Notes under the pieces: generated by a model
Seen by the model: the letters and a program-made list of their open reading frames with translations, nothing else
What the model was told of the DNA's origin: nothing
Database searches by the model: none
Translations under genes and position numbers: made by a program
Assembly (NCBI RefSeq): GCF_009834535.1
Contig: NC_045696.1
Coordinates: forward strand, 42,906,001-42,970,000
DNA length: 64,000 bases
From: Camelus ferus
Taxonomy: Eukaryota
Reading direction: 5' to 3'
In this document: positions 9,428 through 64,000 of the stretch, piece by piece
How the letters are laid out: every line of letters starts with the position of its first letter
Position numbering within the stretch: position 1 is the stretch's first letter

Positions 9428-11574
9428 TTTGTATGGCATAGGATCTTGAGAGGAGACAGACTCTGAGAGTTGGAAAGTGATGACAGTGTATATGATGTTG
9501 ATCAAATCAGTGCATGTGTCCTGGAGGCATATGTGCAAGGAAGGACTGAGGTCTTGCTCAGTAATGCTGTAAAGGTCTACATGAGCCATCCTGCTGCGTT
9601 TCAGATGGGTACTGTTCTTCGAGGGGAGATGAGAGGAATCTATTCTGGGACAAGATGAGTGGAGGATGGGAACTTAAGTGCATCAGGAAAGGGAAAAGAG
9701 ACCCTCTCTTGACTCTAAACGTGGAGCCTCTTGATTCTAAATGTGGAGCCAGAGGGAGAATTTTTTCAGAACCCTAACATGATTCAGAGGGCCCTGAGAA
9801 CAGGAGCTGTGAGTCTCTCCTCTGATGATTACTAGGGAGAATGTATAGTAATAACTGTGAATATAAAAATCCCTAAACATATTTGCAATGATAATGTTTG
9901 TAATAAAATTCAAATGATTACAATAGGAACACACAATTCAAATAAAAGTATAAATATTAAGAGTTACCATGAGTGCATATTTTATAATGAAACAGCAAAG
10001 GGAACTGGCTTCAGAATTGACATAGCAATAGCAAAATCTGCTCAAAGGCACTGCAGTATGTACTTGTTATAAAGCTTTTGGAATTTTAACTAGATTAATG
10101 AAGTCATTTAGTGACTAGGAAATACTAAAAGAATATTGCAGATACTGAATTTCCTGATATTTGCAGTGTAAGATTTATTAAACATAATGGTGTCTTAAAA
10201 GTGAATAGTATTCTGGTGCAAAAATTGTGTTCCTCTCTACCATAAAAGATTAGATCTGAGACTACTGACAACATTCAGGCTCTCTCTCTAATATCATGGT
10301 GTTACTCAGCTGAAAATTGTTTGGGATTTACTTGATTTGCTGGGAACACACGTTTTACCTCTTCGTTAAAACTAGATGGATTATTTGTGTAAAAATATTT
10401 TTCTGCTGCATATTCTTAGAATGATAATTTTATAGAGAGAAAGATCATGATGACTTACATACCTGAAATGATAAAATAAATCTAGGAGTAAATCATCACA
10501 TAAAAATCATTTTTGCCACCTCTGTCAGAGTAAAATTAACTTTGGGAGCTTTGTTGTGCACCCACTATCACACTTTTGTAGCCTATATGAGACTGACCAA
10601 CAGATCTTGGGTTATGTTCACAGAGGTATGAGGAAATAGAAAATCGAGCTGATTGAAGATTTTTTTTTCTTTAATAGTATGTCACTTGAGGAAAGCATAG
10701 ATTGAGGCCTTGAGGTCTCTGTAATATTTCACCATATTCCTCAGATACATATTCAACTTTATTCCTCTCTTTCTTTGTAAACATTTGACCCACAATTCAA
10801 GGTCAGAGCTTTACTTAGTAATCATTTGTAATGGCCCTTTACAATATCATTCTATAGAAATCTAAGATGAGAAAACATTTAGTAGTTCAACTCTTCTAAT
10901 TGTCTAAAAATAGGCCACTTAATCTTTAGGTTGGCACATTAATGAGCTGCCTGCATTCCTGTGGTAAGCCTCCCCACCACAGCAACAGCAAAACCTTCTC
11001 ATTTACGGAAGATCAATAGCCATAGTGCATTTTTCTTTATGCAGTCCAGTTTACAACTCACTTTTAATAACATTTAAAAGTACACAAGCAAATCCTACAT
11101 GACATTTTTATTACCATTGTAATATCTCAAGTTTAATTTTTGGCAGTAAACACAGTCTGGTGCAAACTGAGACGCAAAAAAAAAAAAAAACTTGAGTTTT
11201 AAGTATATTTTTGATTTATATGCTAGTTTGACTTCTGGGGGTAAATAACTATCTTTGTAGGAGACACCTGTGCCTGTGATAAATCTTAAGTCATTTGATT
11301 TTCAAGTTATCTCTAGAGGTTATGTTTTATTTGTTTTTAATAGACATTACATTTTAGGAAGCCTACAAAGTTAAAAATTACATGTTTTTAAAGGCTTCAT
11401 ATGTAGTATATCAAATGGATTTTAATGGACCCAGTTTACTAATTTGTGTTTTTGAAAAGCTCCAAATTAATTGTAGAGTCCAGAGAACCAAAAATGATTA
11501 TTTTACCTTTAAATACATGTTTAATCATTGACACAAATGTTTAGAATCTGTTAGATAAAAGGGAAAAATTAAAA

Positions 11575-15925: not shown

Positions 15926-17665
15926 ACATTTTCTGAAAGAATGAAAAACTGTCACGGGTTAACTATGAAAGTAGTGGACATTCTAATTAGTTAGTCTTTT
16001 TAAGATAGTAAGATTATCTGATGACCCAGATGCATTAGATTTGCTTCTATCAAGAGGTAGGTTGGTGAGTTCATACAATGCTGTCTTCTGATTCCTCTCT
16101 TCTATCAGTGTTCTGAGTGTTAAACAAATGAAGAATTAAGTTTTAGGTCTCAATCCCTATACTACTTTCTCCTTTATTTCTAGCCTTTTTTTTCCTTCCC
16201 TTTCTTTTGTAATTTATACCAAAGCTAAAATATACTTATTTTGCCTGTGGGCAAATTTTACCACCAGTGGGCTTCACTGATACATTCAGTTACATTTCCC
16301 TCTCATTATTCAATTGGTTTATATGTGTTCACGGCTTTGTGATTTTTTTTAATTCTTAGTATACATCAGTGGAAATACCACTGCTTATTGTTCAGAAGCA
16401 AAAATTTAAAATAATAACTAAAACCCCAAAAAATGAGGCTCAAGCTTGGTTAGAAAAAAACACTTCTGTTTATTCTATTTAATTAAATGGATGTGTATTC
16501 AGCCTATTTTTTTCTTTCCATAGTTTTAGATTTAATACAACTAAAAATAGAAAGTAAGAAATGACTGCTAAGTGCTAATTAATACTATTTGTTATCTCTG
16601 ATGATTCTATTTTATGTTCTTTAATCATATGTCTTAAATTACAGGAATGATATGGAAATACATTGATATTTATAAAATAGTTTGATGTAATAAAGATATT
16701 ATCTACACAGACTGACATTTATTACTTTTATACATGACTGACATTTATGGCTTTTTTGATGCTCAACATATGTTTACTCCAAAAGAGTCATGAACTCTCC
16801 TTTGACCTTGAGAAACAGAAATCTTTCAGATAAAGGTCTTTTTAGACATATTAAAATAGATCATGCAATGGTTTATCAGATAGTCAGCTGACACATTCTG
16901 TGGTCTCAGAAAATCCCATTTCCCACTGAGAGTAGTTCTTTGGTCATATGAATTCATCGGAAGTTGAGGAAAGGGGAGAATGCAAGTTTCACGATGTATT
17001 TCAATAGTCTCACCTAGTGTATTATCCTTAAAAGTCTAGCCACAGAGCAGGAAGTAGCTGAACTTTGGTTTGACACATGCAGTGACAGACTGAGCAGAAG
17101 AGGGAATGGATAAACTTACGAGGGAGGCAAAATAGAAGTCATTTCTGTTTCCATAGTACATTTCTTTGAAGGAGCTCAGGGCAAGTGATGAAAAAGATAA
17201 GATGCTGTATATGAACTAATTTTCTCTCAGAAACCAGTCTAAAAACGAGGAATACAGAATACTCACTGGCACATGGTCATGTGTGCTGAGGAATCGTTAT
17301 AGGCCATTTGTTAACTTAGGACCTGATCCTGACAGTGGTGGAGGCAGGATTTGTGACCTTCTCTGTCGACTCAGTCTTTACTCATTTTTCAAGGCTTTAG
17401 CCCCTTCTCCCATGAAACCCTCTTGAGAGCCTCAATTCAAACTGCTCTCTTCTCTCTCAGAAGACCTGTTAAAACCATTAAGCAGTTAAAACCTCATATT
17501 TTGGGTGAACTAACAACTACTTGGACACTGACATCAAGGCAGTCATTTATTGAAGGAAAGCCCCACTTAAGCAGCTTTGTTATTATTCTTGTTCCATTTA
17601 GGAGCCCGCCCCAAAGATACACCATATCTTTTCTTGCCTGAATGCTGGAGACTTTTAAGTGTGAT

Positions 17666-18041
17666 CATCGTGGTTAATTTGATGTATCAACTTGACTAGG
17701 TCACGTGGGGCCCAGATATTTAAACATTACTCTGGGTGTGTCTGTGAGAGTGTTTTTGGATGAGATTTATATCTGAGTTGATCAAGTGAGGAAAGCAGAT
17801 TGCCTTCCCCAAAGGAGAGGGCTTCATCCAACCAGTGAAAGCCCAAATAGAACAAAAACGCTGAGCAAGACAGACTTTGCTCTCCCTGCTTGATGGTTTG
17901 GAGCTGGGGCATTGGTTTCCTTCTGGTTCTCAGGCCTTCAGATGGCAGCTCTTGGGACTTCTCAGTCTCCATAATCATATGAACCAGTTCCCTTTATGTA
18001 TAAGTCCTCTTAGTTCTGTTTCTCTGAAGAACTCTAATACA
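17666..18041 (+). mobile_element. MLT2 (ERVL) solo LTR
   Basis: Begins 'gtggttaatttgatgtatcaacttgactagg...cccagatattt..aacattactctgggtgtgtctgtgagagtgttt' and ends 'ttctgtttctctgaagaactctaataca'. 5-bp TSD GTGAT at 17661-17665 and 18042-18046. Confidence 0.9.
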
Positions 18042-19161
18042 GTGATCAATGGAAAAAGACCTCTTAAAAGCAAAAGTTCTGGGAGAGAAGGGGCAGGGAG
18101 GTGGAGTAGGAAGGACACAGGGAGAGAGGAAACAGTCATTGCATTTCGGACTGCTTCATTGAAAATTCTGGTATTAACTCCATCCAGTATAAACTAAGTA
18201 CAAGGTTTCAATACACTTGTGGAAATCTAAGGAATTAGTGGAAAAATCAGTTTGGTCCATATGTTCCAAGGCAACTAAACTGGGCAGCATTTATCCAAAT
18301 GTATAATCTAAAAGTAAAGGCCCAACATATTTTCATATCCTCTCTGCAATTCTATTTGACTTCTTTTCCTTTCTCTGGCTCTAATCTTTCTATAAATAGA
18401 ATAAATAGGGAAATGCATGGATACTAATTCGTAGCTCTCTTCCATATTGTAGCATCCCTATCTTTTAAAATAACATGACAAAGAAGGAAAAACAGCATCA
18501 AGGGACCTCTCTGAAAAGAGATATCAGGGTTAAGGTTAAGAATGGCTCACATAGAAGGTGTTCTCCTTCCTGTTACACTCTCTTGTTCACCGTAAACTGT
18601 GCTAACCTTACACATTATTTACATACGTCTGTCAATTCTTACTCTATACCAATGTTTGTCACTCAGTCCAACAGTAATACAATTGGATTTTGCATATCTT
18701 TGGGGCCTCAGTGTCTTTACAAGATGTAATGAGAGTTTTAAGGGAGTAAGAATGTCTTTTTTACCCTGCTCTAATGTTGAGCCTGCGAGGAAAGGCTTAA
18801 TGCTTTTCATTTCTACTCTTTCTCAATTTGTCTTCTCCCTTAGAAAGAAAGACAGGAATGTAACTAACCATCTCGAAAGGTATTACAATGCATTGTCTCC
18901 AGAGGATGCACTGAATCTAATACACCGTTCCACCATGTTTTAAGTCATCAAAACTTCCTATTTTATATCATTAAGATGTGCAGTTGCGATGATTTTTTTG
19001 TGTAATTGTTTTTATCAAATTGGTAATTTTGATCAGTTGTGTATTAGTTATAGTTGTGTACTATGATGTAATAACAACATAAAACACAACACTAAATTTG
19101 AATTTTTGTGCTATGAAGTATGTTATCATAATCAATAGAAATTCCTTTGAGCAAACAAATA

Positions 19162-24000: not shown

Positions 24001-24270
24001 GGCTAAATTTTTGACCCTGAATTCTAAGGTGCACCTACATCATCATAATATATTATTCTTTCTTTAAACTTTCAAGTTGGTTTCTGATACTTAAAACTAG
24101 AGTCAACTCACTTGAGTAATGAAGAGATATAGAACTTTTAAGTTGAATTAGGTCCCATTTCTTTATTTTTGCTAAAGAGATTACTACTCTTAGCACTACC
24201 TGGTGGATTGGCCTCAATATAAATGTCATTTTTAATTTAAATTTTTCTTTCTGAGAATCTGATACCTTCA

Positions 24271-26657
24271 TTTTTTAAAAAAATTGAAATGTAGTTGATT
24301 TACAGTCCTACTGGTTTCATGTGTGTAGCATGGTGAATCAGTATTTTTTTGGATTATATTTCATTCTAGGTACTAGATAATGGGTATAACATTGCTTGTG
24401 CTATACAGTTTATCCTTGTCACTTATCTATTTTATATATAGTACTTTGTATCTGTTAATCCCATATCCCTATTTGTCTTTCCCCACCTCCATTTCCCCTT
24501 TGGTAACCACAAGTTTGTTTTCTGTATCTATGAGTCTGTTTCTGTTTTATATATACATTAACTGTATTACTTTTTAGATGTCATGTATAAATGATATTCA
24601 TATAGTATTTGTCTTTCTCTGTGTGACTTAATTCACTTAAGATATTTTCTAGGTCTATCCATGTTACTACAAATGGCAATATGTCATTTTTTAGGGTTGA
24701 GTAATATTCCATTGTGTATGTATGTATTATATATATATGTATATATGTGTGTATGTATATACCACATCTTAAACCAATTGTCTGTTGATGGGTACTTGAG
24801 TTGTTTCCGTATCTTGGCTATTGTAAATAATGCTGCTGTGCACCTTGAAATGCACATATCTCTTCGAATTAGAGTTTTTTTTTTTTTCTGGTTATACACC
24901 CAGCAGTAAAATTGATTGGTCATATGGTAGTTATATTTTTAGTTTTTTAAGGAATCTCCACATTGTTTTCCATAGTGGATGCACCAATTTACGTTCCCAC
25001 AAGCAGCATTCAAAGGTTCCCTTTTCTCCACATCCTCTCTAACAATTGTTCTTTGGAGACTTTTTGGTGATAGCCATTCTGACAGGTGTGAGATGATACC
25101 TCATTGTGGGTCTCCTTTTCAGTTCTCTAATAGGTAGCAATATGAGCATCTTTTCATGTTTCTGTTAGCCATATGTATATCTTCTTTGGAAAAATTTCTT
25201 TTCAAATTTTCTGCCCACTTTTTATTGGATTATTGTTTTTGTTTTTGTTTTTGTTTTTTGATACTGAGTTGTTTGAGCTCTTTGTATATTTTGAATATTA
25301 ACCCCGCATTATTTACACATATTTTCTCCCATTCCGTAAGTTGTCTTTTCATTTTGTTGATGGTTTCCTTTTCTGTGCAAAAGTGTTTAAGTTTGTTTAG
25401 GTCCCACTTGTTAATTTCTGCTTTTATTTCTTTTGCTTTAGGAGACTGATAATAGAAACATTGCTTCAAGTTTTGTCAGAGTGTTCCGCCTCTGTTCTCT
25501 TTTAGGAGTTTTATGGTTTCAGGTCTTACATATAGGTTTTTAAACTATTTTGAGTTTATTTTTGTATATGGTATGAAGGATTGTTCTAATCTCATTGTTT
25601 TACATGTAGCTGTCCAGGTTTCACAGCACCAATTGTTGAAGAGACTGTCTTTTCTTCATTGTGTATTCTTGCCTTCTTTACCATAGATTGTTTGTGTGGG
25701 TTATTTCTGGGCTCTCTATTCTGTTTTAATGATCTATGTGTCTGTTTTTTGTGCCAGTACTGCACTGTTTTGATTATTGCAACTTTGTAGTATAGTCTGA
25801 AGTCTGGAAAGGTTATACCTCCAGCTCTGTTCTTTTTTTCTCAGGGGTGCTTTGGCAGTTTGGGGGTCTTTTGTGGTTCCATGTAACTAAAGGAAAGACA
25901 AAAAAATCACATCATCTCTATAGATGCAGACAAATCATTTTATGGAATTCAACATCTGTTCATGATAAAACTCTCGTAAAAGTGGTTATAGAGGAAATGT
26001 ATATCACAATAATAAAGGCCATTTTTGACAAACCCACAGCCAACGTAATACCCAACACTAAAAAGCTAAAAGCCTTCCTGCTAAATTTAGGAACAAGACA
26101 AGAATGCCCACTCTCGCTGTTTCCATTTAACATAGTATTAGAAGTCCTAGCTCCACCAATCAGACAAGAAAATGAAAATAAATGGTACCCAAATTTGAAG
26201 GGAAGAAGTAAAACTGTCACTATTTGCAGATGACACATTGAGAACCCTGAAGTCTCCACCCAAAACTGTTAGAACGAATAAATGAATTCAGCAGGTTGCA
26301 TGATATAAGATTAATATACATAAATCTGTTGCATTTCTTTACACTAATAATGGAATGTTAGAAAGTAAAAAATATCCTCATTTAAAAATCACATTTAAAA
26401 AAAATACCTAAGAATAAACTTAACCAAGAAGATGAAAGACCTATCTTCTATACAAAGCAAAGTTCTATAAAACACTGATGAAGGAAATTGAAGATAATTC
26501 AAAGGGAGAGAAAGATATCCCATGCTCTTGGATTAGAAGAATTAATATCAAAATGGCCATACTACCCTAAGCAATCTAAAAATTTGATGCAGTCCCTGTT
26601 AAAATACCCAGGACACTTTTCAACAAAACTAGAACAAATAATTCTAAAATTTATATG
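24271..26657 (-). mobile_element. 5'-truncated L1 with 5' inversion (minus part 24271-25884, inverted plus part 25885-26657)
   Basis: Minus-strand ORF2 C-terminal peptides appear in the ORF track ([39 protein letters not shown]). Plus-strand RT peptides are also present (DKPTANVI...[18 protein letters not shown]; 'tttgcagatgac' = FADD). The plus part ends 'aaaatttatatg', which abuts the minus part's 'atggaaccacaaaagaccc' in L1 consensus order. Confidence 0.92.
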
Positions 26658-27315
26658 TAACTATGTTCATCTTCTAAGAACCAACAATTCAGGTTGGTTA
26701 CATAAAATAGAAAAGAACAGTTGGCAATATGAAATGGAAAAGAGGTTTTTTTTAAATTTAGTTAATTTAAAAAACTTTTTTTAATAAAAAGGATTGATAG
26801 GAAAACTGAGAGAATTATAATTAAGTTTAAGAATTCATAGAGTATTTTACAAATTGTATATAGACCTTATAGCCACTGTTTTACTTTTAAAAAATCAATT
26901 TCAGCTAAAACATTAGTATTTGGTTGAATGCAAAAAAAAAAAATAGATGTTTACTATAACTCCAGATCTGTCTCCTCAGTCCTATAATCAATAATACATA
27001 TTGATGCACACTGTACCTTTAGTAAGATTAAAAACCGTCATAGAATTTAAAGGCTGTCTGTAAAGGCATAATAATAAGGCTACTTTTGCTAACTGCTGAA
27101 TTGCCTTTCTGACAGAAAACAGCAGCTAACATAAAGAAGTGCTATTCAGCAAATTACAAGCAAACAGGCCAAAAAAAACCCCAGCTCATTCAATTATAGA
27201 AAGAAGGTGAAATTTAGATAGAATAGAGGTAATGTTTGAGATGGGACATTTGGCTGCATACTTCCAGAAACACAGCAGAACTGAATAATGATAGTATTCT
27301 CATAGATACAATAAA

Positions 27316-28558
27316 TTTTTTTCTTTTTTTAATATATTTTTATTGAAATATAGTCATTTGGCAATGTTGTGTCAACTTCTGGTGTACAGCACAATGCTCT
27401 AGTCATATCGGGACATACGTATATTCATTTTCATATTCTTTTTCACCATAAGTTACTACAAGATATTGAATATAGTTCCCTGTGCTATATAGTATAAACT
27501 TGTTATTTATCTATTTTATATATATTATTTTTAGTATCTGCAAATCTCGAACTCCCAATTTATCCCTTCCCACCCCCTTCCCACCCTGGTAACTGTAAAT
27601 CTGATTTCTATGTCTGTGAGTCTGTTTCTGTTTTGTAAATAAGTTCATTTGTTGTCATCTTTTTTTTTTTAGATTCCACATATAAGTGATATCATATGGT
27701 ATTTTTCTTTCTCTTTCTGGCTTACTTCACTTAGAATGACATTCTCCAGGTCCATCCATGTTGCTGCAAATGGCACTATTTTATTCTTGTTTATGGCTGA
27801 GTAGTACTCCATTGTATAAATATTCCACAACTTCTTTATCCAGTCATCTGTCGATGGACATTTGGATTGCTTCTGTGTCTTGGCTATTGCATATAGTGCT
27901 GCTGTGAACCCTGGGATGCACGTATTTTTTGAATTAAGATTCCCTCTGGATATATGCCCAGGAGTGGGATTTCTGGATCATATGGTAAGTCTCTTTTTAG
28001 TCTTTTGAGGAATCTCCATACTGTTTTCCATAATGGCAGCACCAAACTACATTCCCACCAACAGTGTAGTGTGGAGAATTCCTTTTTCTCCACACCCTCT
28101 CCAGCATTTATTGTTTGTGGACTTTCTAATGATGGCCATTCTGACTTGTGTGAGGTGATACCTCATTGTAGTTTTGATTTGTATTTCTCTGATAATTAGT
28201 CATACTGAGCATTTTCTCACGTTCCTATTGGCCATTTGTATGTCTTCATTGGAGAATTGCTTGCTTAGGTCTTCTGCCCATTTTTGGATTGGGTTATTTG
28301 TTTTTTCTTTTTTTTTTTTTTTTCCTTTTTTTAATTTGTCTTTTTCTTATTAAGTTGTATGAGCTGTTTATATATTATGGAAATCAAGCCTTTGTCAGTC
28401 TCATCTTTTGCAGATATTTTCTTCCATTCCATAGGTTGTCTTTTTGTTTTGCTTATGGTTTCCTTTGCTGTGAAAAAGCTTGTAAGTTTAGGTTCCATTT
28501 GTTTATTTTTGCTTTTGTTTCTATTGCTTGGGTGGATTGCCCCATGAGAACATTGCAA
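27316..28558 (-). mobile_element. Lineage-specific L1 3' fragment (~1.25 kb)
   Basis: Poly(T) at 27316-27330 and an intact poly(A) signal (tttatt at 27339-27344). ORF2 C-terminal peptides [41 protein letters not shown] and FFTAKETISKTKRQPMEW. Confidence 0.93.
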
Positions 28559-33889: not shown

Positions 33890-34399
33890 CTTATTTATTA
33901 ATTTATTTATTGAAGGATAGTGATGTACAATATTATGTAAGTTACAGATGTACTGTATAGGGTTTCATAATTTTTAAAGGTTTTGCTTCATTTGTAGTTA
34001 TTATAAAATGCTGGCTTTATTCCCTGTGTTGTAAAATATATCCTCATAACTTTTATATACATCATAGTCTGTACTTCTGAGTCCCCTGCCCATATGTGTA
34101 TGGCCCATTCCCTCTCCACACCGCTAAGCCCTAGTTTGTTCTCTGTATCTGTGATTCTGCTTCCTTTTTGTTATGTTCACTGTATTTTGTTATGTTCGTT
34201 GTATTTTTTAGAATCCATACGTAATTGATACCATATAGTATTTGCCTTTCTCTGACTTATTTCACCTAGCACAACGCCCTCCAAGTCCATCTATGTTATT
34301 GCAAATGGGGAAAAAAAATTTTGAGGTTAAGTATTATTCCAGTGTGTGTGTGTATGGATATGTGTGTGCATACACACACACACACATGCACACACACTT

Positions 34400-37300
34400 T
34401 CTCTTCCATATCTTGGCAGTTGTAAATACTGCTACATTGGGATGGTGTATATTTTTGAATTAGTGTTTTTCTTTTTATTTTGGATATATACCCAAGAGTG
34501 GAATTGCTGAATTTAAGGTACTCCTATTTTTCATTTTTGTTTTTTGTTTTGTCAGTTTTTTGAGAAACCTCCATACTGTTTTCCACAGTGGATGCACCAA
34601 CGTACATTCTCATCAACAGTGTATTAGGATTCCCTTTTCTTCACATCCTCCCCAACATTTGCTATTTTTGTTCTTTTAGGTGATAGCCATTCTGACAAGT
34701 GTGGGGTGAAATCTCATTGAGGTTTTGATTTGCATTTTCCTGATGATTAGCAATGCTGAGCATCATTTCGTGTGCCTATTAGTCATCTGCATTTCCTCTT
34801 TGGAAAATGAGATTTTTTGCTCATTTCTAATTGGGTTTTTTTTTTTTTTTGAAGTTGAGTTGTATGAACTCTTTATATATTTTGGATATTAACCCTGTAT
34901 TGGTCTTATCATTTGCAAAAGAAATTTCCCATTCAGTAGGTTGTCTTTTAATTTTGTAGATGATTTCCTTTGCTACGCAAAAGCTTTTAGGTTTGATTAG
35001 GTCCCATTTATTTATTTTTGCTTTTATTTCCTTTGCTTTAGGAGATGGATCCAAAAAAATACTGCTGCTCTTTATGTCAGAGAGTGTTCTGCCTATGTTT
35101 TCCTCTAGGATTTTTATGGTTTCTGGCCATACATTTAGGCCTTTAATTCATTTTTAGTTTATTTTTGTCTATGGTGTTAAAGAATGTTCTAATTTCATTT
35201 ATTACAGGGTTTTCCAACACCACTTAATTAAGAGACTGCCTTTTCTTCATTGTATATTCTTGCCTCCTTTGTTGCAGGTTTAATCGACCATACATGCATA
35301 GGTTTATTTCTGGGCTCTCTATTCTGTTTTGTTGATCTATTGTCTGTTTTTGTGCCAGGACCATACTGTTTTATTACTGTATTTTAGAATAGTTTGAAGT
35401 CAAGGAATGTGATTCTTCCAGCTCCATTCTTCTTTCTCAAGATGTTTTGGCTATTTAGGGTCTTTTGTGTTTCCATACAGATTTTAGAATTAATTGTTGT
35501 AGTTCTGTGAAAAATACCACTGGTATTTTGATAGGAATTTGATTGAATCTGTAGATTGCCTTCAATACTATGTTCATTTTAACATTGTTAATTCTTCCAA
35601 TCCAGGAACATGTTATATCTTTCCATCTGTGTCATCTTCAATTACTTTTATCAGTGTCTTAGTTTTTGGAGTACAGGTCTTTTGCCTCCTTAGGTAGGTT
35701 TATTCCTAGGTATTTTATTCTTTTTGATGTAATGGTAAATGGAATTGTTCCCTTAATTTCTCTTTGCTGATACTTCATTGTTTGTATACAGAAGTGCAAC
35801 AGATTTCTGTATAGTAATATTGTATCTAGCAACTTTACCAAATTCATTGATAAGCTCTGGTAGTTTTCTGGTGACATTTTTAGGATTTTCTATATATAGT
35901 ATCATGTCTTCTGCAAACAGTGACATTTTTTACTCCTTTCTTTCCAATTTGGGTAATTTTTCTTTCTTTTTCTTGTGTGGTTGCTATGGCTAGGACTTCT
36001 AATACTATGCTGAATAAGAGTGATGAGAGTGGGCAGCCTTGTCTTTTTTCTGATCTTAGAAGAAATGCTTTCAGTTTTCATTGCTGAGTATGATGTTAAA
36101 TGTGGGTTTGTTACATATGACCTTTATTATGATGAGATATGTTTCCTCTATACCCACTTTCTGGAGATTTTTTTGTCAAAAATGATAAAATGCTTATGAT
36201 GAATTTTGTCAAAAGCTTTTTCTGTGTCTGTTGAGATTATCATAGGGTTTTTATTCTTCAGCTTGTTAATGTGGTGTATCACATCAATTGATTTGTCAAC
36301 ATTGAAAAATTCTTGCATTCATGGGATAAACTTCACTTGATCATGGTGTGTAATCCTTTTAATGTATTGTTTGAATCTGTTTGCTAGTATTTTTTTTGAG
36401 GATTTTTGCATCTATGTCAGGCAGTGATACTGGCCTGTAATTTTCTTTTTCTTTTTTGTGGTATCTTTGTCTGATCTTGTTGTCTGGGTGATGCTGGCCT
36501 TATAGAATGGATTCAGAAGTGTTCCTTCCTCTGCAGTTTTTTTTTTTTTTTTTTGGAATAGTTTGAGAATGATAGGTGTTATTAACTCTTCTCTAAATGT
36601 TTGATGGAATCCTTCTGGCCCTGAACTTTTGTTTTTGGGGAGTTTTTAAACTTCTGATGCAATGTCATTATTGGTAATTGGTCTGTTCATATTTTTTTCT
36701 CCCTGAAACAGTCTTGAGAAATCTTACTTTTCTTAGAATTTGTCCATTTCTTCTAGATTGTCTATTTTTATTGGCGTATAGTTGTTCACAATAGTCTCTT
36801 GTGATACTTTGTGTTTCTGTGGTGTTGCTTGTTATCTTCTCCTTTTTCATTTAGAGATTTTATTTATTTCAGCCCTCTCCTTTTTCCTTGATGAGTCTGG
36901 CTAACTGTTTATCAATTTTGTTTATCTTTTTAAAGAACCAGCTTTTAGTTTTTTTATTTTCTATTTTTTATCTTTATTTCATTTATTTATCTTCTGCTTT
37001 TCTTTCCTTCTAACTTTCAGTTTTGTTTGTTGTTGTTGTTGTTTTTCCTCTAGTTCCTTTTTGTACAAGATTAATTTGAGATTTTTCTCATTCATGATAT
37101 AAGCTCTCTTCTCTCTAAACTTTCCTATTAGAATTGCTTTTGCTGTGTTTTGGTTTTGGATCATTGTGTTTTTATTTGCATTTGTCTCTAGGTACTTTTT
37201 CATTTCCTCTTTGATTTCTCCAGTAATCCATTGGTTGTTTAGAAGCATATTGTTTAGGTTCCATGTGTTTGTGCAGTTGCATAGTATTGTGGTCAGAGAA

Positions 37301-37990
37301 GATGGCTGACAGGATTTCAGTCTTATATTTACTGAGATTTACTTCATGATCTAGCATTTGATCTCTCCTGGAGAAATTCCATGTCTATTTGAATGTGTTT
37401 TCTGCTGCTTTTGTATGGAATGCTTTATGTACATCAGTTAAGCCCATATGATCTAATGTGTCACTTAACTTGTTGATTACCATGGCACCCAAATCTGGGT
37501 GATAGGTCTACTACCTTGGAGGCACCTCATCCACAGTGGGAAATTAATGTGTTAAGCATAGTTTTCCGTATGGATTTTCTGTCTGGATGATCTGTCCACT
37601 GACATAAGTAGGGTTTTAAAGTCCACTACTATTACTGTGTTTCTGTCAATTTCTCCTTTTAAGTCTATTAATATTTACTTTATATATTATATATTTAGGT
37701 GCTTCTATGTTGGGTGTATTTATATTTAGAGATGTTGTATCTTCTTGGATTGATCCCTTGATCATTATGTAGTGTCTTTCTTTCTCTGTTATAACAGTCT
37801 TTATTTTAAAGTCTATTTTGTCTCATGTAAGTATTGCTACTCCAGCTTTTGAGTCTTTTGATTTCCATTTGCTTGGAGTACCTTTTCTATCCTTTCACTT
37901 TCTGTCTGTGTGTATCTTTAGATCTGAAGTGAGTCTCTTGTAGGCAGCATATATACGGGTTTTGATTTTGTATCCATTCAGTGACTCTGT
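34400..37990 (-). pseudogene. Disrupted L1 ORF2 (endonuclease / reverse transcriptase) remnant
   Basis: Fragmented frames carry EN-, RT- and C-terminal-domain peptides. The RT motif 'tctgcaaacagtgaca' reads as SLFA.. on the minus strand near 35910-35925. No continuous ORF. Confidence 0.85.
37469..37551. mobile_element. 83-bp TTAA-flanked insertion, candidate non-autonomous piggyBac-type element
   Basis: TTAA at 37465-37468 and 37552-37555. Removing the insert restores L1-like 'atctaatgtgtcacttaagcatagttttccgtatggattttctgtctggatg'. The ends are degenerate inverted repeats (8/13). Confidence 0.5.
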
Positions 37991-38225
37991 CTTTTGATTG
38001 GAGCATTTCATCCATTTACATATAAGGTAATTATTGATATGTATGTTCTGATTGCCATTTTGTCAATTGTTCTGGCAGTTGTTTTGTAGGTTCTTTTTTC
38101 TTCATCTTTTGTTTTCTTATTCCATGACATCTTGAGAGTTATGTTTGGATTCTTTTTCTTTTCTTTTTTTCTGTCTATCTTTTACAGATTTTTGATTTGT
38201 GATTACCATGTGGCTTTAGGTTACA

Positions 38226-38256
38226 ATCTATATATCTATATCTATATCTATATCTA
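38226..38256. repeat. (TATATC)n microsatellite in the L1 spacer
   Basis: 'atctatatatctatatctatatctatatctat' is seen directly. Confidence 0.8.
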
Positions 38257-41200
38257 TTTATCATTGATCTCTTAATTTCTAATGCACTTTAAAAGCCCTG
38301 CATTTATATTCTTCTTTATGATTACTGTTTTTGATAGCATTTTACATCAAATTACTTTGTGTATTTCTTAACTGCTTATTGTGGATACAGATGATTTTAC
38401 TACTTTTGTCTTTTAACCTCCCTACCAGCTTTGTGTTTGGATGATTTCCTACCTTTACTGTATGTTTACCTTTAATGATGAACTTTTTCTTTTTATAATT
38501 TTCTTGTTTCTAGTTGGGCTCTTTCCTTTTTTGCTTAGAGAAGTTACTTAAATTTTGTTGTAAAGCTGATTTATTGGTACTAATCTCTTTTTGATTTGGT
38601 TGTCTGTAAAGCTTTTTATCTGTCCACCAAATCTAAATGAGAGCCTTGCTGGGTAGTGTATTCTTGGTTATACATTTTTCCCTTCATGATTTTAAATATA
38701 TTGTGCCACTCCCTTCTGGCCTGCAGAGGTTTGACTGAACAATCAGCTGATAGGCTAATGAGTGTTCCCTTGTATGTTTTTGTTGCTTTTCCCTTGCTGA
38801 TTTGAGTACTTTCTCTTTATTTTTAACTTTTATCATTTGAATTAAAATATGTCTTGGTGTGTTTCTTTTTGAGTTAATCCTATATAGGATTCTGTGCTTC
38901 CTGGACGTGGGTTTCCATTCACGTTAGGGAAGTTTTCAGCTATTATGTCCTTAAATATGTTCTCATCCCCTTTATCTGTCTCTTCTCCTTCTTGGACCCC
39001 TGTAATGTGAATATTAGTCTACTTGATATTGTCACAAAGATCTTTTAAACTGTCTTAATTTGTTTTCTTTTCTTTTTTATATTTCTGTTCAGCAACAGTG
39101 ATTTCCACTGCTCTCTGTCTTCCTGCTCACTGATCCATTCCTCTGAATCATCTAGTCTACTGTTAATTTCTTCTAGTATATTTTTCATTGAAGCTATTGT
39201 ACTTTTCATCTCGGTTTTGTTCTTTATATTTTCTCTTTTTATAAAACTTCTGACTTCTCACTCTGTGCATCCATTTTTCTCATGACTTTTTGATCATCTT
39301 TACAATCATTGCCTTGGACTCTTTCTAGGTAGATTGCCTATCTCCACTTCATTTAGTTTTTCTTTTGAGTTTTTATCTTACTCTTTCCTCTGAAACATGT
39401 TCCTTTGCTGCCTCATTTTGCCTAAGTTGCTGTTTGTGTTTTTATGTATCTGGTAGGTTAGTCATGTTTCCTGACCTTGGAGAAGTGACCCTCTGTAGGA
39501 GATGTCCTATGTGTCCCAGCAGTGCATTCCCCTCTTGGCACCCAAGCTATATCTTCTAGGGTTTCCCCCGATGAGGGCTGTGTGTGTTGTTCTGTTGTGG
39601 CAGGCTGAAAATGTGGGCAGTCTTGTAGGCTTGTTTGGCCCCTAGCCTGGTTGTTTGCTAGGTCCTGCCTTGTGCAGAGGCTGCCTGTTGCTGGTTGGCA
39701 GGGCCTTATCATGAGGCGGCCGACTGAAGACCTCCAGGTGGGCCCAGAACTAGTGCTTGCTCACTGATGGGTGTAGTCAGAGTCCTGAAGACTCTGGGGC
39801 TCTGAAACCATGACCTGGGGTTAGTGCCAGACTATTGGCAGGCAGAGCTGGTTCCTGGAGTCTGGCTTCAGGGCCCAGGGATCCCAGAATGGGTGTCTGA
39901 TTGCTGGTGGATGGGGCTGATCCCTGACACAATTCGATAGGTAGTTTTGGGTGTCCTGAAGCTAGTCTTGGCTTGCTAATGGGAGGGACCATGGCCCAAC
40001 TGATCCCAGGGCAGTGTCTGGCCTGCTATATGTACACTGGATATACAGGCTGTGAGACTATGATTTTCTTGCATCTGGCATCTGCCTCCTGGTGGATGAG
40101 GCTGTTTCAGAAGCCAGAGTAGGCTTCCTGGAGGGCAGGGCCAGTGCCTGCCCACTGGTGAGTGGAGCTGTGTCCTGGTCCTCTGGTGGGCAGGGCAGTG
40201 TCTAGAAGCATGTCTAGAGGTGACTATGGGCTCATGTAGTCTTTAAGCAGCCTGCCTGCTGATTGGTGGAGCTGTGTCCTTGCCCAGTTAGTTGTTTGGC
40301 CTGAGGCATCCTAGCACTGGTGCCTATACGCTTTTATGTAGGGCCAGGTCTTGGTGCTAATGAGCTAGATGGAGGAGTTTACAATGGTGCCCACCTGAAC
40401 CAGTGTCCACAGGATAGAGTAAACTCCCAAGAATGATTGTTGTCATTGTCTTTGTCTCCAGGTTGAGCTTCAGCTGCTTCCCACCTCCCTGGGAGACTCC
40501 TCCAAGACCAGCAGGTAGGTCTGGCTCAGGCTTCTATCAGATTACTGCTTTTGCCCTGGATTCCAGAGCATGTGAGACTTTGTGCACACACTTTAAGAGT
40601 GAGGTCTCTTTCCCCCAGTCCTTTGGGACTCTGGTAATTAACCCCTGCTGGCTTTACAGCCAAATGCTCTGGGAGCTCCTCTTCCTGGTGCCAGACTCCC
40701 AGGCTGTGGAGCCTAGCATGAGGCTCATAACTCTTACTCCTGTGGGAGAATTACTGCAATATAATTACTCTCCAGTTTGTGGGTTGCCCACCCCAGGGTA
40801 TGGGACTCCATTGTATTGTGAGTCCACCTTTCCTATTCGTCTGATGCTTGCTTCTTTGTGTCTTTAGTTGCAGATCTCTTCTGGTAGGTTTTGGTCTTTT
40901 TCACCTATAGTTCTGCAAAGAATTGTAATTTTGGGGTGCTCGTGAGAGGAGATGAACTCAGGGTCTACTATCCGGGCCAATCTCTCACATATATTGATTT
41001 TAGATGTTAGAGAAAAGCATGACAAAAAGAGAAAAGTCACATAAAGTGTGCTTGGAAGGCAAAATAATCAATTTTAGACCTACTGAAATTGAGTATCTTA
41101 GAAATCTACTCCAATGTGTGCATCTAGAAATATAATTAGAAGCTAGGTAGTGGGAAGGAGTAATAAAGATTTGAATGTCTTCAACATATATCTTAACATT

Positions 41201-43134: not shown

Positions 43135-44690
43135 AAAAAATATTGAGCACCTACTGTAACTCTGGGATTTGGCAGTGAACAAAATACAGTTGACCCTTGA
43201 ACAGCTCAGACATTAGGGGCACTGACCCTTTGTGCGATTGAAAGTCTGAGTATAACTTAACACCTTGGTGTCTGTGGTTCCACCTTCATGCATTCAACCA
43301 ACCCTGGATTGTGTAGTATATATGTTTATTGAAAAAATGCTCACATAAGTGGACATGCAGTTCAAATCTGTATTGTTCAAAAGTCAACTGTAGTTTAAAA
43401 TCTCTGTCCACATGGAGCTTACAGTCTAACAAAGGAACAAAAAAAAAAAGAAAATTTTAAAAATATATGCAATATTTTATATGGGGGTAAGAGCTTTGAA
43501 GAAAAATAAAGCAATATAAAAGGGCAGGGAGTACTGGAATTGGGAGGGAGGATTTCTAGTTAACATAGAAGGTTGTTGAAAAAAGTGAAAAGCTTGAAGA
43601 ATTTAGGGTAGGTATGTGGGTACCTGGGGAAGAACATTTCTGGTAGAGGAAATAAGCATGTAAAGTCTCTGAAAAGGATACATGTTTGGAATATTCCTGC
43701 TTATAAAAGTACCAATGAGGCTAATGTAACTGAAATGCCATGAGTAAGATGGAAAGGAGTGGATGCCTACAGAAGTTAATTTGGAAGTGAGAGGGCTACA
43801 TTGGATAGAGATAAATTGTGAGAAGGTTGACGTTTTCTGAGTGATTGAGTGAGATGTCATTTTGAGCAGAAAAGTGATTGGCATGATCTAAATTTTATTC
43901 TTCGTGTGTGTAAAACAGAATACAGGGAGTCAAAAGACAAGAGCAGGGCATTAAGTTAAAAGCTGATGGCAATAACTCAGACAAAGGATGAGGATGGCCT
44001 GGCCCTGCATGTTAATGTATAAGTGATTAAAATAATGGTTTCAAATTATGTTTTGAAGGTTAAACAAATTGAATTCACTGATGTGTTGAGTATGTGGTTT
44101 GAGAATCAAGTTTTTTGCTCCAGGCAACTGGAATAAGTGGAATTGACATTTACAGAGATAGGAAAGAAAATGCATTTTGGGGAATATCTGGAGTATTGTT
44201 TGAGAATTTTAAATTTGAGATGCTTACTTTATATTCAAGCAGAGTTGCCAAAAAGTCAGTTTAATATTTAATTCTGGATCAAAAGTTAGGTCTGGACATA
44301 TATATGTGGGGATGGAAGGTATTTAAAGCCTTGAAGCTCAATGAGTATAAATAGTGGGAGTAGGGAGTAAACAAAATATTCACAGGCTGGATGAGAGACC
44401 CCAAGTCTCTCCAAGATTTCAGAATTTGAATTTAAAATATGAAAATTAAAAAGTCAACCAGTTAGCAAAGAAAAGTACCAGGAGAAAGAAGTGGCTTAGA
44501 ATCTAAGTTACTTTGTTTTAAATGGAGGAATAATTGATCTGTCATGTCAAATGATGCTTATAGTTTAAATTAAGATGAGGACTGAGAATTAACCATGGGA
44601 TTTAGTTATAATCATAGGAAAGTCATTGATGATTGACCATCAAGTGAGCATGGACAATTAGTATGAGTCTAGCCAAGAAAGAATGGAAGG
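43135..44690 (-). mobile_element. L2 (long fragment, interrupted by a Tigger MITE; further piece at ~45580-45745)
   Basis: Starts 'tattgagcacctactgt...ggcagtgaacaaaata' and resumes 'ctctgtccacatggagcttacagtcta'. Also 'ctggggaagaacatttctggtagaggaaataagcatgtaaag' and 'taagatgaggactgagaattaaccatgggatttag'. Confidence 0.85.
43187..43390. mobile_element. Tigger2-derived MITE (MER8/Tigger2a-like)
   Basis: TIRs cagttgacccttgaaca / tgttcaaaagtcaactg and TA target duplication at 43185-43186 and 43391-43392. Confidence 0.9.
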
Positions 44691-54029: not shown

Positions 54030-57000
54030 TGACAGCCTATGGCTTGTATTTTCATTTTTATTTTCTTAATGGTATATTTTGAAGAGCCGAACATTCTAAT
54101 TTTGATAAAGCCCAGTTTATCCATATTTTTCTTTTATGCTTTGTGTTTTGTATCGTCTTAAGTTATCTTTGCCTAACTTAATGGCCATAAAGATTTCCTC
54201 CTATATTTTCTTCTAGAATTCTTATTATTCTTGCTTTTCAGTATCAAGGCATGATAAATTTGAGGTTGATTTTTTTAAATTGTGTGATGAAACTTTTGAT
54301 CTTCACTACCTTTTTCCAACCCCAACCCTTTATGGGTATTTAGTTATTTCTGCTAGAAATATATTGGAAGTTTGATTTAAAAAAAAATCAATTGATCACA
54401 TCTGTTTGTCTAATTGTGTATTCTCTATACTGCTCATTTAATTCAGGTATCTAAGCTCACCCCACACCAGCACACACTTTATAGCTTTATATAGTAAACC
54501 TCAAAATCAGTTCATGTAATTATATTCTTTCATACACACTTGAGAATTAGGTTCTTCAAAAATTCTTTGAAATTTTGATTGGGGTTGATTTACATCTATC
54601 AGTTTAGGGTAAATCAATATTTTCAAAATATCATACGTGCCAATCCATAAGTATAATAAATCTCTGTTTTTCAGGTCTTCAGTGATGTTTTTCAGTTTTA
54701 AATGAACTTATCTTACACATATTTTGTTAAATGTATTACTAAGTATTTTAATTTTTACATGACTGTAAATTATATGATTTTTTAAAAATTTTACTTTTCA
54801 ATAGTTGGCTGTGAATATATAGAAGTAAAATTAATTTCTTTACTAATCTTATTCTGAACCTTGCTAAATATATTTATCAGTTATAATCATGTTTTGAATT
54901 TGTTAGAATGGTCTAAATTTCATTTTTTTGCTTTCCAGTTAGTTTTTAAAACAGTATTATTTTTTCTAACATTAGTGCACTAGATAGGCCCTCCAGTCCA
55001 ATGTTGAATAAAAGAAGTTCTAGTCCTGTTTTTTCTTTTAGAGAAAAAACTCTCAACATTTAATTATTAAGTATCTTAGTTGTAGGGCTTTCTTACATGC
55101 CCCTTGGTGAAGTTTTATTCCTTTCCAAGTTTGCTGCAACTTTTAATTTGTATTATTTCTGAAGTTTGTCAAATACTTTCTCATTTATTAAGGTGATTAT
55201 AATATTTTCTACTTTTTTCTGTTAATATAGTGGATTACAGTGGTCTGCTTTATAATGTTCAACTTTGCATTTTTCAGGAGAACTACTTGGTCAGGATGGA
55301 TGATCACCTTTACATTGTTGAATTTGATTTGAAAATAATTTGTTAAGATTTTTTGTTTCTTATAACATCTCACTGTCATATCAGGATAATGCTAGCTTCA
55401 TAAAATGATTTGTAAAAGCTTCTCCTCTTCTACTGTTCTGAGCTTTTGTGAGATTTCTATTATTTTATCATTAATAGTTTGATAAAATTCTTAAAATGGT
55501 GAGTTTTCCAAGCTTGGAGTTCTCCTCTGGGGAAGAGTTTGATAACAAAATTGACTTATTCTATAATAGATGTAGAGATACTTAAATTTTCAGTCTCTTC
55601 TTGGGTCAGTTTAAGAATTTGAGTCACTCAAAGCATTTGTCCATTTCATTTAACTAGTCAAATTTGTAAACATAAAACTGTCCAGAATATTTTCTTAAAA
55701 CAATTTCTTTCCTCAGATCTTTAGTGATGCCCCCATTTTGATATTGGCTATTTTGTTTATTCTTATTTCTTAATATAGAGATAATTATAGGTCTATCTGT
55801 TTTATTGATCTTTCAAAGCATCAGTTTTTCATTTTCCTTTGATTTTATCTAATGTTTGTATTCCATTCTTTTTTTTAATTTCTTTTTTTTTCTGTTTCCA
55901 ATAATTTATTGACAAGAGAGCTTTCTATATATCTTCCTATCACTCTATATTTCTTAACATTTTCTATTGATTTATAATCATTTTACAATGTTGTGTCAAA
56001 TTCCAGTGCAGAGCACAATTTTTCAGTTATACATGAACATATATATATTCATTGTCACATTTTTTTCTCTGTGAGCTACCATAAGATCTTGTGTATATTC
56101 CCCTGTGCTATACAGTATAATCTTGTTTATCTATTCTACAATTTTGAAATCCCATCTATCCCTTCCCACCCTCCACCCCCTTGGCAACCACAAGTTTGTA
56201 TTCTATGTCTGTGAGTCTGTTTCTGTTTTGTATTTATGTTTTTGTTTTTGTTTTTGTTTTTTAGATTCCACATATGAGCGATCTCGTATGGTATTTTTCT
56301 TTCTCTTTCTGGCTTACTTCACTTAGAACGACATTCTCCAGGAGCATCCATGTTGCTGCAAATGGCATTATGTTCTCGGTTTTTATGGCTGAGTAGTATT
56401 CCATTGTATAAATATACCACTTCTTTTTTATCCAGTCACTTGTTGATGGACATTTAGGCTGTTTCCATGTCTTGGCTATTGTAAATAGTGCTGCTATGAA
56501 CATTGGGGTGCAGGTGTCATCCTGAAGTAGGGTTCCTTCTGGATATAAGCCCAGGAGCAGGATTCCTGGGTCATATGGTAAGTCTATTCCTAGTCTTTTG
56601 AGGAATCTCCATACTGTTTTCTACAGTGGCTGCACCAAACTGCATTCCCACCAGCAGTGTAGGAGGGTTCCCCTTTCTCCACAGCCTCTCCAGCATTTAT
56701 CATTTGTGGATTTTTGAATGATGGCCATTCTGACTGGTGTGAGGTGATACCTCATTGTAGTTTTGATTTGCATTTCTCTGATAATTAGTGATATTGAGCA
56801 TTTTTTCATGTGCCTATTGATCATTTGTATGTCGTCCTTGGAGAACTGCTTGTTCAGGTCTTTTGCCCATCTTAAGATGAACAACTTATTTCACTAATTT
56901 GATATCTTTAATAGTTTCTAATATAAGCATTTAAGCTATAAATTTCCTATAAAGCACTGTATTAGCAGAATTCAGTAAACTTGTATATTTTGCTTTTATA

Positions 57001-61440: not shown

Positions 61441-62342
61441 ATAATTTTGATTTTAAAATTTGTATTGAATTCAGTTTATTCAGCTTAAATTATTTTTTTT
61501 ATTAAGGTTGTGTTTTCCCACTTGGTTATCCTAGATTAATTAATTTCTATTTGAATTCTATTACTTTGTATGATTTCTATTCTTTTAAATTTGATACAGT
61601 GTGTTTATGGCCCAGAATATAGTCTATAATTGTGAGTATTCTATGCATATCTGTAAAGAAATTACATTATGCTATTGTTAGGTGGAATATTTTATAAATC
61701 TCTAAGTGGGTTAGGTAGGTTGATAGTGTTGAATAGATCCTCTAGATCATTAATGATCTTCTGCCTGTTTATTCTGTCATTACAGTGATAAGTGTTAATG
61801 TGCCTTACTACAACTACAAATTTGTCCATGTCTTATTTCAGATCTATCAGTTTTTGCTTCGTGTATTTTAAAGATATTTACCCTGACAACATCCTTATTA
61901 TGAAATCTAGATTTCTGATATTAAATAGCTCCTGTATCTTTCTTTTATATAGTTCTTACATATCTTTCTCAATCCTTTTACTTTTAATGTGCTGGTATAT
62001 TGACATATATATATGAAAGTTTACATAATATTTACATTTAAAGTGTGTTTCTTGTAAACAGCATATATTTAGATCTTCTTCACCTAATCTATTTCTATCT
62101 TTTAGTTGGTGTGTTTAGATTTCTCAGATTTAATGTGATTCTAAATATTACTGGATTAACTATTTCAACTTGCCAGTTCTTCCCTCTATTATAAATTTGT
62201 TTTTTATTCTTTTCCTCTATTTCTGCCTCATTTTAGTTTGAGCACATTTTATAATTTCATTTTATCTCTACTATTGACTTACTTATACCTCTCTTTTAAA
62301 TGCTTTAATGGTTGGCATAGGGTTTAAAATATACGTATTTCA

Positions 62343-62444: not shown

Positions 62445-64000
62445 ATCACAGTCTACCTTTAAATAATATCATTAGCTCTATGTTCTAAACAAAAAATTAA
62501 GTTCTACTGTTTTTGTGTTAGATAATCAATAATTTGTTAGAACCATTAAGAATTAAAAATAAGTAAATTTTATTTCAGCTTTATTTTGTTTAATTCCTTC
62601 TGGCCCACACACTTCAGAAAGGCAATTTTCTATGACAAATAAACTTTTTTTCCTTTCTTTCTTTCTTTCTTTGTCCTTTGTCTCTGACCTGCAAATTTCA
62701 AAGTCTCAGGTCTCCTAGTTTATCCATGAAATCCTGGTAGATGGACATGTAAACTTGCATGTAAACACGTAAACTTGCTGAAATCTCAAGCCTTCATTGT
62801 GCTCAAAGTATCTCTACATGGCTTCCTTTATGCCAGTGTTCTGCCCCCAAATTCCAGCTATTTTGTTCTCCCTGAACACTGGCTTCTGTCTCCTCATCTC
62901 AGTGAGCCCATCTTTCTCTACTTGGTTTTTCCCAATCTGTGTTATGTCCCCAAAATGCCTGAAGGAAGGAAGCTGGAGTGATTGTAGGGCAGGTTTCTTG
63001 TTTCCCATCTCTCAGGACATGGAGCCCTGCACTGGTTCATTGTCTTAGGTCTGAAAATCATTGTTGTATTTTATTTTGTACAGTTTTCTAGTTTTGCTTT
63101 TTTGTTTTTCTTTAATATCAAGAAGGGATGCATCTGGTACCAGTTACTCCTTCACGACTGGCCTGTTTTAGAGTTTTGATTTTAAAATTTTAATTATATT
63201 TATTTTATTTAGTTTAAATTAGTTTTTTATTATCAAAATTGTGTGTGGGTTTCCCTTGGTTGGTTTTCTTGGTTATCCTAAGAAAATAAGTATTCTTTGA
63301 CTTTCTCATGTAAAAATAGTATATATTACCGTGACCATTCGATGATCTCACTGGAACATTCAAACTTTATTTCCACTTACTTGCTTCTGACTTTGCATTA
63401 TTTTAAACATGCATTTTAAACATTTGAAGATATTATAGTTATCATTTTGTATGGTTAACATTTGTTTGTATTTATCGACCTGCTTACTTTTATTGGTGGT
63501 TTTTATTATTTCGTGTACTTTCATATACAGAGAAAAGAACCATGGAGGTAAATAAAGAAAGCAGGAAGGGAGGAACATAAGGAGGAAAGGTGGGGAGTTA
63601 CATCCTTCTGATTTTACTCAAAGTAACACATATTTTACTTAGAGAAACAGACAACTAAATCTTAACTAAGAGGATGAATGGTAAGAATTTTATGAAATGT
63701 CTATTTTTTAGTTTAAAGATATATTAGGGAATCTGGCATTAGTTGCATCATCAATGATTTGGATTTACCGTAAGTATTTAATGTAAGGAATCATTCCTCC
63801 AGTTGAGTTAAGTATATGGAAGAGTTATCAAAAGAGCATTGCTTCACTTTTCCAGAATGTGTTCAATATGATCTTATTAGAATCAATAGATTAGATTAGG
63901 CCTGGTCACCTCTCAAGGAGAATGCCAGGTCCAAGAATACTTGTAGTATGTAAAGAAACTCCTCCTTCAGCTATGTTGCTGCGAGACCGTTCTATGGTTT

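Follow-up and report, generated by a model that had tools for sequence, protein, structure and literature searches.

A TTAA-flanked 83-base insertion in a decayed camel L1 is probably a non-autonomous piggyBac-type transposon

What interrupts ORF2 of an old L1 in the genome of Camelus ferus, and how did it get there? Within the window (the whole analysed stretch of 64,000 nucleotides), a reading of the sequence alone had described an L1 ORF2 split by TTAA, 83 bases and TTAA, and had proposed a piggyBac-type element. The split is plain to see: 83 non-L1 bases lie exactly between a TTAA at 37465-37468 and another at 37552-37555, neither target copy having a strand. As that reading also stated, there is no poly(A) at the insert, which moreover retains no CpG and codes for no protein. 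We conclude that the 83 bases are probably a non-autonomous DNA transposon of the piggyBac type, a deletion derivative of MITE size, now dead and decayed.

The host is a near full-length, heavily decayed L1 on the minus strand (about 33891-40970, both ends approximate), and the insert splits the endonuclease region of its ORF2. To one side, the stretch 37558-37671 encodes a match to residues 130-164 of the endonuclease of human L1 (E 2e-4); to the other, a minus-strand reading starts again at 37462 as a 24-residue piece, which we take to be L1-like and which found no match in the PDB. One base is absent beside the right TTAA, leaving the two L1 flanks one base out of frame. The host is riddled with stops, its longest stop-free stretch on the minus strand measuring 119 codons, and a search for its own target duplication found none. 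The 83-base copy is junk: it lies in a dead L1 and shows nothing to suggest a function. Elsewhere in the window, self-BLAST against the L1 at 34125-36172 shows that, in the L1 fragment at 24135-26660, the part 25967-26660 is inverted relative to 24504-25882, an arrangement typical of a 5'-inverted L1 insertion. Two L1 3' ends (27325-28284 and 55950-56873), 81% identical over 961 bases, form the closest repeat pair of the window.

Does the insert have relatives? A one-off repair or retro-insertion was initially favoured as the rather likelier explanation, because 37545-37551 repeats the left flank; it was dropped after contig alignment had shown dispersed copies. Contigs of four runs (DNA runs X1, X2 and X12, RNA run X19) were aligned to 37430-37585 in one alignment with an 80% likeness floor, giving 25, 26, 34 and 9 contigs, respectively, all of them lower bounds owing to a record filter, for which reason the lack of cover at 37556-37585 carries no weight. 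As every aligned contig is less than 95% alike to the window, they represent other loci and not this one. Among the 32 pieces listed out of 94 aligned, 27 cover approximately 37459-37505, and with it TTAA and the first 34 bases; their alignments run over 37-44 bases and contain 3-8 mismatches (median mismatch 13%). For the length and mismatch pairs computed, the chance expectation of such left-end matches is 2e-4 or less per genome. The left junction falls at 37463-37466 in at least 13, 13, 17 and 5 contigs of X1, X2, X12 and X19; in the DNA runs, within-group agreement of the letters before it is no more than 0.49-0.72, as expected of unrelated flanks, and those behind 37501-37502 agree 0.65-0.96 among copies, as a common interior would. 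The insert thus belongs to a dispersed TTAA-bounded family, since its first 34 bases recur in contigs of other loci that start at TTAA and have unrelated flanks. Its left end (37469-37502, plus strand) is the family terminus; copies of it abut TTAA at no fewer than 13-17 other loci, and a left terminus common to many dispersed copies is what is expected of a MITE. The sequence-only reading had named a single-copy sequence as grounds for abandoning its proposal; instead, the left end recurs at no fewer than 13, 13 and 17 other loci in the three DNA runs. Hits lacking TTAA flanks or shared termini would have told against it too; the relatives start at TTAA and have unrelated flanks. Its further expectation, that dispersed copies share both ends and TTAA flanks, is borne out for the left terminus at many loci; for the right terminus, the alignment implies one other locus.

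Most aligned relatives stop at 37502, and their continuations are 50-62% identical to the insert: three loose-end consensuses, compared with the sequence from 37503 onward ungapped and by eye, agree at 15/30, 17/30 and 18/29 positions, with an excess of transitions among the mismatches (11/15, 9/13 and 7/11). From this comparison, the interior past 37503 appears homologous to the main family and more diverged than the left end. The remaining five of the 32 pieces listed align to 37486/7-37539/40, from which they differ at 10 positions. Most listed left-end contigs end within ten bases of 37502, as assembly graphs do on entering repeats, which hints at more copies than those aligned. What is apparently one and the same other-locus copy recurs in all four runs (records 3, 11, 17 and 27, covering 37463-37505 of the window); about 20 bases past 37505, its X19 version has an inverted copy of the palindrome arm described below, so that it may be a symmetric derivative some 90 bases long, and the internal layout seems to vary within the family. 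Separately, a 1135-base X19 contig (record 19) ends in the left terminus of the family at a depth of 68, compared with 4-14 for the other listed contigs above 200 bases; this is possibly a transcribed locus carrying a family copy, in a library that may contain DNA.

Further searches addressed presence at large. Five sampled words of the insert are all present in 20 of the 24 runs listed, which comprise three organisms and RNA-type runs; this screen, in which 16 runs may be source DNA, speaks to presence in run data and not to family spread. Exact-pattern scans of viral and metagenome contigs returned no match, and these collections hold so little mammalian DNA that they are uninformative on distribution. 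A second copy within the 64-kb window was sought and none was found, the best local match being 13 bases and the best ungapped alignment of the left 38 bases agreeing at 22/38. Other repeats of the window include a 71-base AT-rich direct repeat of 80% identity (61445-61513 and 63174-63244) and a 204-base element at 43187-43390 with inverted ends matching at 15/20 positions and TA on both sides, which resembles a Tigger-type MITE.

Could the 83 bases simply belong to the consensus of this L1 subfamily, another ground on which the piggyBac proposal might have been given up? One paralogous L1 contig in X1 and one in X2 depart from the window at 37467 into L1-type sequence. Because these paralogous contigs continue in L1-type sequence at that point, the insert lies outside the L1 consensus, and this objection falls. 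The empty L1 site has one TTAA and the filled site two. Insertion into TTAA with a four-base duplication, a defining behaviour of piggyBac elements, is accordingly visible in the two flanks here, in the contigs from other loci and in the uninterrupted L1 contigs. The dispersed left ends at TTAA, their unrelated flanks and the L1 contigs that lack the insert all support the earlier piggyBac-type reading.

How well do the ends themselves fit? The left terminal inverted repeat (37469-37481, plus strand) is decayed, the right one (37539-37551, minus strand) starts with CAC, and a recount agrees with the 8/13 identity first reported for these 13-base ends. The perfect 6-bp hairpin reported at 37486-37501 is likewise present. 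Each taken alone, however, these two features amount to modest evidence: of the 83-mers of the window, 1.1% have ends matching at 8/13 or better, as do 1.5% of random TTAA pairs, while 9% of shuffles and 491 of 3196 window 83-mers (9-15%) contain a 6-bp stem. The insert strand folds no better than its shuffles (z -1.26 to +0.08). More telling is a comparison with described elements. According to the accessible part of a survey of 157 elements, piggyBac terminal inverted repeats measure 12-19 bp and begin with the six bases C[CAT][CAT][TGA][TAG][TGA] (PMC5381638). Both ends of the insert match this motif (joint chance 0.5%), and among 942 TTAA pairs of the window spaced 50-200 bases apart, this insert alone combines motif ends on both sides with an end match of at least 8/13. 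When 16538 pairs were tested, TTAA pairs with piggyBac-motif ends and 8-9/13 matches also turned up at 10540-11370 and 17315-18535; these are probably chance.

The palindrome, too, sits where a piggyBac element would have it. Its 6-bp stem spans bp 18-33 of the insert (37486-37501, no strand; centre 25.5), and in Trichoplusia ni piggyBac, as far as the available text goes, the palindrome bound by the paired C-terminal domains of the transposase occupies bp 17-33, with its centre near bp 25 (PMC7351741). A subterminal palindrome near bp 17-33 is common, albeit not universal, in the piggyBac superfamily, and 1.3% of shuffles have, at one end or the other, a perfect 6-bp stem whose centre lies at bp 23-28. 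By analogy, 37486-37501 is a candidate site for the C-terminal domains of a transposase. The inner segment that follows (37503-37538, plus strand) may possibly hold, at about 37506-37538, a worn second copy of the terminal unit; by itself such a second binding unit is insignificant, with 620 of 5000 shuffles and 124 of 488 window 83-mers as good.

The right tip is the weakest part of the transposon reading, being backed by one other locus. In each of X1, X2 and X12, the depth table implies one piece from another locus (depth 8.2, 6.8 and 9.1) that spans 37521-37555 and ends on the last A of TTAA; this is probably a single locus seen three times. For a 35-base piece inferred from depth in this way, the chance expectation per genome is 0.39 at 7 mismatches, the 80% floor, and 0.0025 at 5. 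It is here that the strongest alternative arises, whereby only the left part is transposon: a piggyBac-type left-end fragment would have been patched into a break in the L1 by end joining or aborted transposition, the last 11 bases would be a flank copy with four bases lost, and the right inverted repeat and TTAA duplication would be coincidental. Its basis is the recurrence, on the plus strand, of seven L1-flank bases (37454-37460) at 37545-37551, an echo that extends in such a way that 37545-37555 equals 37454-37468 minus four bases. Only 818 of 364212 random TTAA pairs (0.2%) repeat their flank in this manner, and the aligned relatives mostly cover just the left 38 bases. The echo was nonetheless noticed post hoc, the right end agrees with the piggyBac motif and, at 8/13, with the left end, and on the left the element end meets TTAA precisely, as expected from transposition. 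The right-end piece of each DNA run, which stops at the end of TTAA, argues against the patched fragment without closing the matter, and we consider this alternative unlikely.

Might another superfamily be responsible? Kolobok and Sola3 transposons also target TTAA, and their ends start with a purine. TTAA duplication is not unique to piggyBac, and no transposase was seen with the insert. Three Kolobok-like MITE families are moreover listed for C. ferus in the part of PMC8605555 available. Against such an origin, both ends of the insert start with C and the palindrome occupies the piggyBac position, which makes a Kolobok or Sola3 element very improbable. Least likely of all, and only barely conceivable, is that the L1 machinery copied in a short RNA, or that a unique locus served as template, and that the resulting 15-base target duplication was subsequently trimmed: the flank echo would suit such an origin, whereas the insert has no poly(A) and matches no RNA family, and the left end starts exactly from TTAA at many loci. 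Consistently, an Rfam search with the insert gave nothing at gathering score and four weak matches (E 0.79-7.6), taken as chance, and no tRNA gene was found in the 64-kb window, where a single loose B-box-like match gave no obvious tRNA-derived SINE.

Which known piggyBac elements does the insert resemble? The following comparisons rest on the accessible portions of the cited papers. The piggyBat element of Myotis lucifugus shares with it a mammalian host, the TTAA target and ends starting with CAC (PMC11707139, PMC13405395). The two ends of piggyBat, judged by eye from printed oligos, agree at 8 of the first 13 bases (PMC13405395), and its left end has repeated palindrome units, its right end none (PMC11707139). 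Because piggyBat shows both properties, weak inverted repeats and a palindrome-free right end would, by this analogy, be no objection to a piggyBac origin of the insert. In contrast, piggyBat matches the left end of the insert at 7/13 and the right end at 8/13 by eye, its palindrome is unrelated, its unit is 44 bp long compared with about 34-37 here, and it is autonomous and active. The CAC-type ends that the first description mentioned are real, both in piggyBat (PMC13405395) and in many bee piggyBacs (PMC10140906). Among the CAC-type bee and wasp elements, a Bombus pratorum family has ends of 13 bp that open with CACGT; over these five terminal bases, the only ones given, each end of the insert differs from it at one or two positions (PMC10140906); no longer end motifs were found in the supplement of that paper, as far as it was covered.

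T. ni piggyBac shows the same order of features, a 13-base terminal repeat followed by a palindrome near bp 25, and the same TTAA duplication (PMC7351741). It differs in its CCC-starting ends, which by eye bear no sequence likeness (PMC4625184), in having the palindrome on both ends and in encoding a transposase. Like the insert, the primate elements npiggy1-3_Mm (PMC2997546) and MER75, MER75A/B, MER85 and Looper (PMC5753468, PMC4625184) are short, gene-less and TTAA-flanked. Non-autonomous piggyBacs of this kind reached hundreds to thousands of copies in primates and are tens of millions of years old (PMC2997546, PMC5753468, PMC4625184). The ends of npiggy1_Mm, however, agree with those of the insert at only 5/13 and 6/13 by eye, and npiggy elements measure 240-348 bp (PMC2997546). 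Overall, by eye, the insert ends reach at most 8/13 against the printed ends of piggyBat, T. ni piggyBac and npiggy1_Mm, and the palindromes are unrelated. The piggyBac families named for human are Looper, MER75, MER75A/B and MER85 (PMC5753468, PMC4625184, PMC12324416); a RepeatMasker table for the dromedary has at least 24 rows of Looper, and among the rows covered there is no 'piggy', MER75 or MER85 (PMC6675863).

How might such an element have reached the L1? Extrapolating from piggyBac biochemistry, we envision a scenario whereby a full-length element elsewhere supplied transposase in trans. The transposase core would bind the terminal repeat and its paired C-terminal domains the palindrome at bp 18-33; the element would then be excised through hairpin intermediates and joined to TTAA in the L1 ORF2, duplicating the four bases. 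What was left would comprise only the left-end binding units and the 13-base right tip; the element may have been mobile at this size, or its interior may have shrunk after insertion. Presumably, the insertion took place some 20-70 million years ago, when the L1 was already in place and the three organisms had yet to diverge. Two flank consensuses have the same letters throughout in X1, X2 and X12, which implies that the insertions they adjoin are older than the divergence of the three organisms. Pairwise differences of 8-19% translate into 18-73 million years at rates of 2.2e-9 and, for camel, 1.3e-9 (from the part seen of the PMC10162687 supplement), a crude age given short alignments, the 80% floor and the inclusion of CpG sites. 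The same supplement, to the extent available, puts the camel-pig split at 64 million years; its Table S2 was left out for implausible values in several bovids. As a rough estimate, the age range spans the divergence of camels from other even-toed ungulates and is compatible with an origin inside or before camelids.

Is the family already known? In the accessible literature, which mostly leaves out subscription papers, no description of a piggyBac family from camelids or artiodactyls was found. Table 8 of PMC8605555, as available, assigns four piggyBac-like MITE families to each camelid genome by Repbase similarity; they share host group and class label with the insert family, a comparison by label alone, and the insert family may be one of the four. 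There is a fair chance that it already has an entry in a database. The covered parts of broader surveys locate full-length mammalian piggyBacs only in bats and mouse lemur (PMC5381638, section 10) and count 2 horizontal transfers in 46 cetartiodactyl species, camels going unmentioned in the main text (PMC10162687), and 11 in all non-bats (bioRxiv 2023.03.09.531574). An older lineage-limited family could have escaped notice, because the Zoonomia curation, according to the accessible text, focused on families under 4% divergence (bioRxiv 2022.12.28.522108). A serious but tentative possibility is that horizontal transfer brought an undescribed CAC-type piggyBac into the camel lineage once that lineage had separated from the other even-toed ungulates, and that several MITE subfamilies arose from it; the 83-base copy would then be a near-minimal mobile form, consisting of left-end binding units plus a right tip of just 13 bases.

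If so, a herbivorous lineage would join the few mammalian groups, primates and bats, with described piggyBac invasions. In the portion available, bioRxiv 2022.12.28.522108 ties the uptake of DNA transposons to a meat diet; by contrast, a wave of piggyBacs among the ancestors of camels would add one more invaded mammalian germline, that of a herbivore. The insert is a sign that piggyBac-type elements once spread in camel ancestors. Shared insertions of the family could serve as presence/absence markers for ungulate phylogeny, and its smallest derivatives would reveal the end sequences that the transposase requires.
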